In this document: in pieces, positions 3,001 through 6,000 of the stretch
Numbering within the stretch: the first letter of the stretch is position 1
Layout: each line of letters starts with the position of its first letter
IMG/VR virus record: IMGVR_UViG_2541047860_000009
Span: 1-33,718 of that record
Strand: one strand, 5' to 3'
DNA length: 33,718 nt
Source: a virus
Lineage: Duplodnaviria; Heunggongvirae; Uroviricota; Caudoviricetes
Position numbers: made by a program

Positions 3001-6000
3001 GGAGTTACGCTCGCCGTTAACAGACAACAGGGCAGAGAACGGTGCTGTCTTTTTCAGTTTGAGAGTGGCGGTGTTATCTGCGTGACCTGGTTCATCAATA
3101 GTACCCAGGTTAAGCACACTGACGGCACGCATATTATCAGCATCGATAAAGCAGCGGGTGCCTTCATCTGCAAGATCTTTAGAATAACGGGTAAAATCAT
3201 CGATGCTGGCAGTGGAAAGCGCACCACGGAAACGGAAGCGATTTAAATTAAATTTTTCCAGATCATGAATGCGGAAATTCTCAGGCAATGCCACAGCATC
3301 GGCACCAATCTTACTGATAATTTCATTAACACCCTGAGCAGAAATAAGGGCATGGATTTGATTAATTGCGGTTGCGTCTAAGTTCTGAGACATAATAAGT
3401 CCTCACTATATAAAGATATTCAGTGATGAGATAAATAATCAGTTAATTAAAAACGATATTAACGACCTGCTGCGCGGAGTTTTCCGTCAGGTTCACCGGC
3501 AAGAGTCAGCAACTGTCCCTGGTCTTCCTGCAGAATAGTCAGGCGACCACCGCGATTGACATACATCGGCGTTTCGGTGGTGTCTTCTTCGGAAATTTTC
3601 CCGCGGTTAGTCGGGCGAACATATGAGAGTTTGTGTTTGATTTTCACTCGGTTCTCATCAAACGGTTCGATTTCTAGGTTGAGCGAGACCTTACCTTTGG
3701 TTTTCGTGTTCATCACACCGGAAGCGACTTCACTGAGAACTGCGCCGATTTTGGTTTCAAATACGCCGCCGTCCAGCTCCCCGATAAATGCCTGCACATC
3801 AGTACTGCGTTCGCTAGCCATTTTGCTGCTCCTCATCATATCGACCCTGCAAGGTCGGTTAGTTTCTCCACAAAACAGAGAAGAACACCTGCGGTGACTG
3901 CCGCCCGGATGGATTGGGTTATGAGCCCGTCGTCCGGTGATGCTCTTCTCTGTTTTGTAAAAAGGACGGTACCAGCCGGAAGCAAGGGTACAAGCTGGTA
4001 CCGCCAAGACTACACACAGCATAAAGTTGTGGTGCCGGGTGCCTCCCGGTGCCTGGCGAAGGTTGCACACCAGGCGGGTGGGTATCCACAGAAGGTCGAC
4101 TGTCAGCCTCAACCTTAACCCGCGTGCGCTGAGCCGCATTCACCACAACGCTAAGGATTCTCTCTGGTTGAAAATACTTAGCTGTTATGTGCCTGCTTTT
4201 AGCCACATCAGGCGAGGTGGACCTAGTTATTCCCCAACAACAAGGATTCGGTTAATCTGGTTATCCCCAACAACGCAAAAGGAAAAGAAATGTCCGGTAA
4301 TATCTATACGCTGTACAAATCCCACTGTGAAAATGTTGGAAAGTATCGGGGCATTGAAATCAGTGGGGTAGTGTCATCAGTCGAAATAAGCAAAGTTGAA
4401 TCAAGGGCAACATTACTTACTCTTTTGGACCTTGTCTTACATGAGCACCGGAAGAAATTCGGCACTCCCTATAATCAGTTGAATGGGAAAAAGGCTCTGG
4501 TTCACCTTATTCTGATGAAGCATCACTGGATGCCAAAACAGATTAATGAGATGAAATTTGATGAACTTCTTCTTTCAATTCAGGATGAACTCACACTTGA
4601 TAAAATAAGCGTAACCGCCCAGAAATTTTTAGATTATCGAGACTGGAGATCACAAATTCATCACTTTGATGATTTTGACGAAAATGAATGGGATCCTAAT
4701 TTGTCTGCACAATATCTAAAGTAACATCCTGTGATAAAACCGTGATTTCCTGATCCAGTTTTTTTAAGGAGTCTATTGTTTCCTGTCGATAAGACAGCAC
4801 TTCACGAAGCTGGTTTATAGCTGCCAGCTTCTTTGTCATCCACTCATAAATTTCCTCATCTGTGTAGCCAGGCGCGACGATTTTGGGTTCTGTTTTGTGC
4901 ATTTCACATCTCCTCAAGTTATCAGTTACTTGTTGATGGGGACCAGATTGTTAAAGAGCTAAGCGTCCTGTAGGGCGCTTTTTTGTTGCTAACGAATCAT
5001 CCTGGACTTCATATGCCCCAGGCGGCTACTTCGTGGGCGTCCTGCCTGTTCGTTTTTGACATTTACTGACTGCTTACGACACATGCACCGTGTTGCAACC
5101 AGATTTTGTTGTAATCCTGTAGTTGGTCTGGAACAAAAGATAAAATTAAATTGTGAGATATGCAAGTGGTATTTGCGTGATATGCAAGTTGATAGGTAAT
5201 AAAAAGCCACCTTTCGGTGGCCGATGGAAGGATATTGAGGTTAATTATGTCTCTTAAGGGTTTGAGACTGACTGATTAAGACCTTTCCAAAGACCATGAA
5301 TCGGTGTTCGTTTTCGCTAGTAATTCCCCATTCACGGTAAATCTGGTTATCAGAAATCACCAGCAGTTTGTCAGGAATCATTTGAAGTCTTTTAACGTAT
5401 ATTTTGTCATCAAAACCAAAGACATATATACCATCACCATCAAACTGATTGATGCTGACATCAACGAAGATGAGATCTCCTGGCTCAATGGTTGGACACA
5501 TACTGTCCCCACGAACGTTGATAACTTTGATGTGATTGGCTGGTCGTCCGCCGAACATTGATACAGCATTATCAGTTCTGTATTCGATGGCATGAATCAC
5601 ATCAATGACATCACCGCCCTGGATAAGGCCATTTCCCGCACTGGCACTGATATCCAGCATTTCAATACGGAACACATCCTTCACCTGCGCAACATCCTCA
5701 TTATTACTGTTTTTATATACAGTATTACTTTTGTGGGCAGAGGTAAAGAGATCAGCAATATCAACACCTAAGCTCTTGGCAATATTACTCAGTGTTTGTT
5801 CGGTAAATTGTTTTTGCTTACCCGTTTCTAAGCGCGAGATGTTCACCGCATCTACTCCTATTGCTTCAGCGAGATCGGCGATTTTCATGTTCTTCGCTTG
5901 GCGAAGTTGTCTGACTCGGTTTCCTATGTTCATGCGTTTATTACATTTCTTTATTGCGTGATAAGCAAATCAACTTGCGCAAAATAATTGCGTGAAATAA

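Follow-up and report, generated by a model that had tools for sequence, protein, structure and literature searches.

The closest described counterpart of the locus reported here is sRNA-17, a small RNA (sRNA) from an mEp460-like prophage of Escherichia coli K1 RS218, which measures 193 nt by 5′/3′ rapid amplification of cDNA ends (RACE) and is visible on northern blots (Sun et al. 2020, PMC7719688). It rises in stationary phase and was reported to have no Rfam homologue (PMC7719688). A second described group is STnc100, a multi-copy prophage sRNA that is transcribed in enterohaemorrhagic E. coli (EHEC), with one copy confirmed by northern blotting (PMC5331693). STnc100 usually lies in the late region, after Q, tRNAs or stx2 and before the esterase and lysis genes (PMC12370729, PMC12711010, bioRxiv 10.64898/2026.05.13.724894). 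EcOnc27/sRNA103, an Hfq-bound RNA, overlaps STnc100 downstream of stx2B (PMC12711010, PMC12370729), and PasD, an sRNA abundant in RIL-seq data for Hfq, is structurally related to STnc100 (bioRxiv 10.64898/2026.05.13.724894). Here we analyzed a 33,718-nt stretch of a Caudoviricetes virus (IMG/VR record IMGVR_UViG_2541047860_000009, positions 1 to 33,718; hereafter the window), whose early-left arm contains a GC-rich island between yfdP and a gene for a 144-aa protein. The minus strand of this island from 4149 to ~3960 probably encodes a structured prophage sRNA of ~190 nt, which would be the counterpart of sRNA-17 and a sub-threshold relative of STnc100, PasD, and EcOnc27. The kind of RNA is already known, and the variant in the window is new.

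The gap between yfdP (minus strand) and the 144-aa gene (plus strand, starting at 4290) spans 3822-4289, and the GC-rich island within it is a genuine non-coding, structured RNA region of several parts. GC content was 0.53-0.585 across 3800-4199 and 0.35-0.43 across 4300-4799. The original prediction, made from the sequence alone, had described a GC-rich island with AT-rich genes on either side. Its GC-richness is real, but the AT-rich flank exists on the right only, because the yfdP side (3500-3899) has a GC content of 0.49-0.51. At least four inverted repeats had been announced, and all those listed were recovered where they had been placed, namely 3870-3894/3934-3958 (25-nt arms, 84% complementary, 15 perfect pairs included), 3967-3976/3994-4003 (10/10 paired), and 4071-4079/4118-4126, together with two that had not been named, 4026-4034/4141-4149 (9/9) and 4150-4162/4170-4182. 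Compared with dinucleotide shuffles, against which all fold z-scores were computed, the minus strand of 3822-4289 folded at -188.4 kcal/mol (z -5.6), a value that none of 100 shuffles equaled, and the plus strand at -165.8 kcal/mol (z -2.8). The island therefore folds far beyond chance, as expected of the candidate structured RNA that had been proposed. The structures belong to the minus strand, which is the strand of yfdP and of leftward transcription from the early promoter pL, since several helices contain G-U pairs, which on the plus strand would read as A-C mismatches. However, the island had been treated as one element, and it is instead a chain of at least five separate mosaic RNA modules (Table 1).

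Table 1 Coordinates of the RNA modules in the island and of the surrounding features in the window
Feature	Position	Strand	Description
Upstream hairpin	4182-4150	-	Stems 4182-4177/4155-4150 and 4175-4170/4162-4157; -11.8 kcal/mol, z -5.7
Core RNA domain, STnc100 type	4149-4026	-	Multi-helix junction, 124 nt
Core P1	4149-4141/4034-4026	-	Closing helix GUUGUGGUG/CACCACAAC, 9 bp
Core P2	4138-4135/4128-4125	-	Preceded by junction J 'AAU', which follows P1
Core P3	4121-4118/4079-4076	-	Encloses variable hairpin 4116-4109/4099-4092
Core P5	4075-4068/4058-4051	-	
Core P6	4049-4045/4039-4035	-	Loop AGGCA
Single-stranded linker	4025-4006	-	UUUAUGCUGUGUGUAGUCUU, candidate seed, between core and terminator, ~20 nt
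Intrinsic terminator	4005-3959	-	13-bp stem 4005-3993/3977-3965, then C and UUUUU (3963-3959)
Long hairpin	3960-3868	-	yfdP 5′ untranslated region, 93 nt; ~20-22-bp stem 3958-3939/3889-3870; conserved apical part
Small hairpin	3857-3842	-	CGACCU-UGCA-GGGUCG, 6 bp, just 5′ of yfdP ribosome-binding site; z -3.3
yfdP ribosome-binding site	3834-3829	-	GAGGAG; start codon 3821-3819
yfdP coding sequence	3459-3821	-	phrog_204
Leftward early promoter pL	5164-5136	-	TTGCAT-17-TATCTT; overlaps two operator copies (5151-5167, 5173-5189)
Segment outside the RNA	4183-4289		Repressor-gene remnant, degenerate hairpin copy, ribosome-binding region of 144-aa gene

The module at the 5′ end, the upstream hairpin, belongs to a block of ~55 nt 5′ of the core that is common to phage SfV (AAAAGnCAGGCACATAACAGCTAAGTATTTTCAACCArAGAGAATCCTTAGC). 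The minimum-free-energy fold of 4149-3957 yields helices P1, P5, and P6, an unpaired linker, and the terminator. The linker motif UGCUGUGUGwAGUCUU is retained in ST64B, 118970_sal3, and phiES15, despite the different terminators of these phages. The terminator hairpin (-23 kcal/mol, z -5.3), which was missed by the terminator scan because its loop exceeds the length allowed there, is homologous to the terminator at the RACE-mapped 3′ end of sRNA-17, and by this analogy the 3′ end of the window RNA would be expected near 3960. Downstream of it, the long hairpin (-47.8 kcal/mol, z -8.2) is a candidate RNase III site. In both the long and the small hairpin, compensatory changes preserve the pairing in ST64B and phiNP, and these two phages build the same small hairpin from different sequence (GGCGG...CCGCC in ST64B).

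The correspondence with sRNA-17 fixes the ends of the predicted RNA. We placed sRNA-17 on mEp460, with its sequence and sense taken from the supplementary alignment and primers (PMC7719688), where it runs from position 2356 of mEp460 locus L010, the first G of GTTGTGGTG (helix P1), to position 2548, the fourth U past the GGTACC terminator. In the window, the corresponding RNA is likewise on the yfdP strand, with yfdP downstream of it and pL and the repressor gene upstream; it begins at GUUGUGGUGAAUGC, and its end is the U-tract of GGUACC...GGUACC (4149 to 3960). Its extent of ~190 nt is thus set by homology with the mapped RNA. It should be noted that the similarity does not run over the whole 193 nt, as BLAST covers only query positions 194-251, i.e., the terminator (58 nt). 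Two hybrid loci (L064 and L131) combine a window-type core with an mEp460-type linker. Because it shares helix P1, the terminator, and the downstream hairpins with sRNA-17, is joined to it by these hybrids, and matches STnc100, the window variant connects sRNA-17 with the STnc100 family.

The Rfam search that had been suggested as a check gave a split answer. STnc100 (RF02076) matched the minus strand over the full length of the model (model 1-206 against 4179-3956) with an E-value of 4.7e-8, but the score of 43.4 bits is lower than the curated gathering score of 47 bits. The cores of ST64B, 118970_sal3, phiES15, P1, SJ46, and RCS47 scored 33-42 bits with the same model. Of the family's features, the window has the closing helix (P1), the GGUGAAU motif, and CCGGG-AGGCA-CCCGG, a hairpin (P6) that stacks on P1 at its 3′ strand, and 22 nt of the window (CACCGGGAGGCACCCGGCACCA) are identical to the family consensus. 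A variable linker followed by a Rho-independent terminator is also present (4025-4006; 13-bp stem, five U). However, the first internal hairpin of STnc100, CCCCC-UGUGCGG-xGGGG, is replaced by GCGGCUCAGCGC (P2), where cmscan marks non-pairs, and the window copy lies in the early-left arm between the immunity region and yfdP instead of in the late region.

Covariation of the helices, the other check that had been proposed, is strong. Scanning viral contigs with a motif yielded 38 distinct subfamily cores; this diversity had to be drawn from such contigs because species-representative genomes gave only five Escherichia/Shigella loci. Among the 28 distinct cores of close relatives, 99.4% of the alignment cells in five helices pair, compared with 36-48% when the partners are slid, and five pairs change on both sides; among these double changes are U-A to C-G in both P1 and P5, U-A to G-C in P3, and C-G to U-A in P5. 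P2 and most of P6 are invariant in this set, in part because the search motif fixed them. The covariance model built from this alignment (R1) scored 138 bits on the window and recovered the canonical STnc100 cores at full length (25-54 bits), the sRNA-17 core of mEp460 (25.1 bits), and further cores in the Sakai prophage Sp4 (76.9 bits) and in the K-12 prophage Qin (68.6 bits, E 3e-16). Across 86 distinct sequences, 90.6% of cells pair, against ~40% with slid partners, and 19 of the 26 core pairs change on both sides (241 cells), with none of 500 shuffles reaching any of these measures; this alignment was fitted to the model and hence favors the structure, although the margin is large. P6 now covaries as well, with CCGGG/CCCGG replaced by CCUGG/CCAGG in Qin and Sp4 and the AGGCA loop retained.

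The island is widespread and consists of modules that travel separately. The whole 481-nt region was found in 2782 of 5426 complete E. coli genomes, and also in phages SfIV, SfV, SfII, Kati, and others. The core (~4165-4001) is common to ST64B (88% identity), 118970_sal3, and Cronobacter phage phiES15 (77%), in which it precedes kil, and is ~71% identical in P1-like phages, where it stands before tciA in the ban operon, which C1 controls. mEp460, cdtI, and Stx2c phages, on the other hand, have the terminator and long hairpin (3820-4007) but lack the window-type core sequence. Downstream of the subfamily cores comes a linker with a terminator, an open reading frame (ORF) with a ribosome-binding site, or a tRNA gene. 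When 139 distinct combinations of a core and its downstream sequence were counted roughly, a hairpin with a U-run followed within 41-122 nt in 70, and an ORF began within 16-63 nt in at least 20.

Some cores of the STnc100 type lie inside or right after tRNA arrays. One array reads Asn-Tyr-Thr-core-Ser (L094, 4263-4809), another has Met and Lys tRNAs followed by four cores (L141, 2325-4160), and a third, in Sakai Sp4, has ileZ-argN-argO followed by a core (L136, 39420-39883); the ban operon of phage P1 (L006, 1772-3432) is a further context of this type. Tandem arrays of three to five cores, ~250 nt apart, occur on viral contigs L141, L179, L230, and L231. The P1 record also annotates a 'dicF-like region' (L006, 1215-1316; P1 68791-68892). 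Since this region shares the ban operon with the core before tciA, the pairing of DicF and core seen in Qin (see below) recurs in phage P1.

In the prophage, the island lies ~950-1300 nt downstream of pL. The promoter was absent from the promoter-scan list and was read by eye, by analogy with the identical layout of mEp460. Operator-like repeats of the TTGCGTGATATGCAAGT type occur at 5151-5189, and again between cI (the repressor gene) and cro at 5954-5998. A leftward transcript would pass a 68-aa ORF (4902-4696), run antisense through the 144-aa gene, and enter the island ~1 kb from its start. The original prediction had set the island on the path of leftward early transcription, and pL, its operators (~5136-5189), and the strand of the structures agree with this placement.

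Taken together, these data suggest that a terminator-ended prophage sRNA, doubling as a barrier ahead of the early-left genes, is the most likely function of the locus. The stand-alone non-coding RNA was one of three functions originally proposed, and it fits best, given the correspondence with sRNA-17 (RACE and northern) and STnc100. The best-supported description of the window RNA is a structured 5′ body, a single-stranded stretch that varies, and a U-tail, an arrangement shared by Hfq-dependent base-pairing sRNAs and by its relatives PasD and EcOnc27. Leftward transcription would cross the core, starting at pL once the prophage is induced or, in the lysogen, arising from a weak promoter or by read-through. 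Most transcripts would then stop at the terminator and leave a stable RNA, whose linker and U-tail, judging from the relatives, may form an Hfq-type base-pairing module acting in trans on mRNAs. The same terminator would keep yfdP, yfdQ, and the genes beyond silent unless transcription is strong. On transcripts that read through, the long and small hairpins would most likely set RNase III processing, stability, or translation of the yfdP mRNA. For this variant, expression, dependence on a chaperone, targets in trans, the barrier role, and RNase III cleavage of the long hairpin are all predictions from its relatives and its layout.

Several observations weigh against this reading. First, as noted above, the STnc100 score stays below the curated gathering score. 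Second, neither a consensus scan nor inspection by eye found a convincing sigma-70 promoter upstream of the core: near the core, only GAGAAT at -13..-8 could be seen, without a -35 element, and SfV has a weak AAGACA-17-TATTTT. Third, no target emerged for the candidate seed. It found no better-than-chance target at the ftsZ ribosome-binding site; DicF-like pairing with ftsZ (-60..+30) was rejected, as 83% of shuffles were as good, compared with 6% for DicF itself. Nor did RNAduplex on both strands of the window reveal a prophage target (best non-self pairing -24.4 kcal/mol, against a shuffled-seed mean of -26.5 kcal/mol). Fourth, a 95-fold rise of yfdP was reported in an sRNA-17 mutant (PMC7719688). 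We considered that this rise reflected loss of the terminator, and rejected the idea because the deletion primers (Table S2 of PMC7719688) keep the first ~30 nt and the terminator hairpin. The inserted cassette points toward yfdP, and the induction may be a polar effect of it. Because the terminator was kept and the cassette may read through, the rise can be assigned neither to loss of the RNA nor to loss of the terminator. Finally, the core also directly precedes ORFs without a terminator (dicB, tciA, and others), which suggests a cis function of its own that the sRNA model does not explain. That model likewise leaves unexplained the cores in front of tRNAs and the strong conservation of the junction and loop.

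These last points lead to an alternative that we regard as possible but clearly less probable, in which the core works chiefly in cis, as a module of phage operon transcripts, and its use in a terminator-ended sRNA is secondary or derived. The module could be an RNase III or RNase P processing or stability signal, or a protein- or ligand-binding leader for the next gene. In K-12 Qin, the core lies between dicF and dicB (NC_000913.3 1649453-1649581), and in Sakai Sp4 a core stands between a bona fide DicF (76.9 bits) and a dicB-like gene (L136, 25719-25570). The Sp4 layout came to light when ECs1072 was considered as an island context in Sakai and set aside, since that gene lies elsewhere in Sp4. 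In these two prophages, as in P1 before tciA and in others, the core lies 16-63 nt before the start codon, with no terminator between. The closing helix reaches 17-18 bp in the dicF-dicB spacers; in Qin, helix P1 is extended to 17 bp (L257, 2947-2963 with 3074-3090; span NC_000913.3 ~1649446-1649589). A 72-nt DicF species has a 3′ end made by RNase III (PMC5069750), and, counted from the dicF start, we infer that this end falls within the 5′ strand of the extended helix. A structured dicF-dicB spacer was not described in the literature on dicBF regulation that we searched. The cis-acting alternative is also consistent with the cores inside or beside tRNA arrays and in tandem arrays, with the 5′ end of sRNA-17 at exactly the first paired base of P1, as structure-guided cleavage would yield, and with a fixed GGUGAAU and AGGCA loop amid covarying stems and one variable peripheral arm, as in RNAs that bind a partner. 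However, the 9 bp of P1 in the window fall short of what a classical RNase III site needs, and about half of the cores have a terminator within 41-122 nt, with those RNAs accumulating as sRNAs.

A broader form of the same idea, which we hold to be more doubtful still, is that the STnc100-type core is a separate, widespread, and hitherto unrecognized cis-acting RNA domain of temperate enterobacterial phages, serving as tRNA-like punctuation that RNase P or RNase III would cut, or as a protein or ligand site that controls toxic early genes (dicB, kil). Such a domain would unite STnc100, PasD, EcOnc27, sRNA-17, the dicF-dicB spacer, and the tciA leader of P1. The helix order of the core resembles that of a class II tRNA: after the closing stem and a linker of 3 nt come a small hairpin, then a long arm and another arm, and last a hairpin of 5 bp that stacks on the closing stem. 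A tRNA-like reading would fit this helix order, the neighborhood of tRNA arrays, and the 5′ end of sRNA-17 at the first paired base, and its basis does not extend beyond these three points. Searches for tRNA character were negative: ARAGORN found no tRNA or tmRNA in the window, 3700-4400 had no Rfam match from the tRNA clan up to E 10, and no consistent CCA follows P1.

Another function originally proposed was put-like antitermination. put RNAs are two-hairpin elements in both early operons that suppress termination. A core acting in this way, in cis on RNA polymerase to allow read-through of terminators in a phage without N protein, would suit its position in the early-left transcript upstream of the first intrinsic terminator, and no N-like gene lies between pL and the island, where the 68-aa protein is the sole reading frame. 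However, the homologous sRNA-17 ends at the terminator directly after its core (3′ RACE), the RNAs that accumulate from the canonical relatives are sRNAs ending in a terminator, and numerous copies are located either in tandem arrays or in late operons, which Q already serves. In addition, model R1 has one match in the window, so the rightward operon has no counterpart and the pair of copies typical of put is lacking. We therefore consider put-like activity very unlikely. Elsewhere in the pL leader, just after a hairpin at 4980-4961, there is an exact rrn-type boxA-like 12-mer (GCTCTTTAACAA, 4948-4959, minus strand), which may bear on Nus-factor antitermination in a phage without an obvious N gene. 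As evidence it was rejected, being missing from the mEp460 and ST64B loci and matched by 11 of 100 shuffles at up to one mismatch.

It is similarly improbable that the modules are an inert relic in this prophage, cut off from their promoter by insertion of a cassette carrying the 144-aa and 68-aa genes. The segment 4183-4289 is a recombination scar and lies outside the RNA, because the 3′ end of the repressor gene (5317-5351) recurs at 4223-4265, with a degenerate version of the post-cI hairpin after it. This remnant and degenerate terminator copy (4183-4265), the distance of ~1 kb between pL and the core behind a gene on the opposite strand, and the promoter scan, which found none, would all suit a relic. 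Yet the sequence is 95-100% conserved in thousands of genomes with its helices intact, transcription from pL is still directed toward the island, and SfV, which has a similar divergent layout, retains the same upstream block.

A small protein encoded in the island, by the plus-strand ORF at 3894-4118 or by minus-strand ORFs, is more improbable again. Open stretches of some length are present in all six frames. The plus-strand ORF (74 aa) matches phrog_3651 (E 7e-49), a 49-aa ORF on the minus strand matches phrog_33599, and the Prokaryotic Genome Annotation Pipeline (PGAP) annotates a 'frameshifted hypothetical protein' on the minus strand over ~3836-4146 (L001, 4017-4327). However, these ORFs occupy both strands of the same DNA, none of the island ORFs has a Pfam match, and no frame is kept in the homologous regions of mEp460, ST64B, 118970_sal3, and phiES15. 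The core alignments contain a 1-nt indel relative to ST64B and a 5-nt deletion in phiES15, and the substitutions in helices are compensatory. Moreover, of the 162 positions in the phrog_3651 profile, the N-terminal half would lie antisense through yfdP. The PHROG and PGAP entries are thus probably ORF calls on a GC-rich RNA gene, i.e., annotation artifacts that have spread through databases. This outcome agrees with the original description of an island free of protein-like ORFs whose ORF-track hits are artifacts, and the confident protein homology that would have spoken against it was confined to these PHROG matches on opposite strands.

The remaining proposal, a long structured 5′ leader of the plus-strand 144-aa gene, is hardly credible: the island lies directly upstream of that gene on the map, but the G-U pairs of the helices are valid only on the minus strand and the plus-strand fold is weaker, ST64B, mEp460, phiES15, SfV, Qin, and P1 carry RNA modules without the gene, and the recombination scar separates the gene from the RNA.

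Some features of the neighborhood are worth recording. The ribosome-binding region of the 144-aa gene carries the direct repeat TCCCCAACAAC twice. The 144-aa (plus) and 68-aa (minus) genes are convergent and overlap at 4696-4724, and the sequence AATCTGGT..CCCAnCAACAA occurs ~20-30 nt before the start codons of both. In the rightward arm, isrK (7192-7268, plus strand, 64.2 bits) adjoins the C4 antisense RNA (7293-7380, plus strand, 82.3 bits), and these two are the only Rfam families found in the whole window at gathering thresholds.

The region is present in about half of the complete E. coli genomes, yet it is unannotated or misannotated there as a frameshifted pseudogene or hypothetical protein, and its recognition as RNA corrects those annotations. 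It also links three unconnected literatures, namely those on sRNA-17 (with its K1 virulence phenotype), on STnc100, PasD, and EcOnc27 (Hfq-bound sRNAs of EHEC and enteropathogenic E. coli), and on the dicBF operon of K-12. The wider point, of more interest than the finding itself, is that sRNA-17, STnc100/PasD, the tciA leader of P1, and the dicF-dicB spacer of K-12 are connected by a single covarying RNA domain. The K-12 copy of the core, located between dicF and dicB, makes a direct test of what the conserved domain does possible in a standard laboratory strain. In addition, the terminator and the hairpins before yfdP form a candidate barrier that would keep early-left prophage genes silent in lysogens.

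Compared with known systems, the long hairpin resembles the RNase III hairpins of T7 and lambda (R sites, N leader, sib) in having a ~20-bp stem, with a conserved internal part, between an upstream RNA and the next ribosome-binding site; the likeness is one of layout, and cleavage in the window is only predicted. Like HK022 putL/putR and lambda nutL/tL1, the locus has an RNA element that precedes the first terminator and lies early in the pL transcript, and its phage shows no obvious N gene. However, HK022 put has two hairpins in both operons, whereas the window has a single five-helix junction whose relatives terminate right after it, and the boxA-like 12-mer lies elsewhere in the leader and is not conserved in relatives.

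The dicBF operon, too, is an early-left operon under repressor control, and through processing it gives an sRNA that ends in a terminator. DicF and sRNA-17 both accumulate in stationary phase, and the window terminator has a 5′ arm similar to the one in DicF (UUGGCGGUAnCAG), although the DicF model (RF00039) gives only 19.4 bits (E 0.13) on the window linker and terminator, against the 48 bits required. The order of parts differs, with DicF, terminator, core, and dicB in Qin, and core, linker, terminator, hairpins, and yfdP in the window, and P1 has 17 bp in Qin compared with 9 bp in the window.

STnc100, EcOnc27, and PasD share with the window RNA the closing helix, GGUGAAU, the internal hairpins, the near-identical 22 nt CACCGGGAGGCACCCGGCACCA, a variable linker, and a terminator. 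Both groups are prophage-borne, and their helices covary jointly when they are aligned together. They differ in the first internal hairpin (GCGGCUCAGCGC in the window, CCCCCUGUGCGGAGGGG in STnc100), and the ~30-nt 5′ extension of the Rfam STnc100 model is not a conserved feature of the window RNA.

sRNA-17 and the window RNA have in common P1 (GUUGUGGUG...CACCACAAC) followed by AAU, the GGUACC terminator, the two downstream hairpins, and a similar length (193 nt mapped for sRNA-17, ~190 nt predicted for the window). The interior of the core differs, with P2 GCGCAGGCUGAUGCGC and P6 CCGGAGAUCAGCACCGG in sRNA-17 and P2 GCGGCUCAGCGC and P6 CCGGGAGGCACCCGG in the window, as does the linker that would serve as the seed (AGCCACUGCUUUGG vs UUUAUGCUGUGUGUAGUCUUGG). 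Finally, Rfam offers a match for the window RNA (STnc100) but none for sRNA-17.

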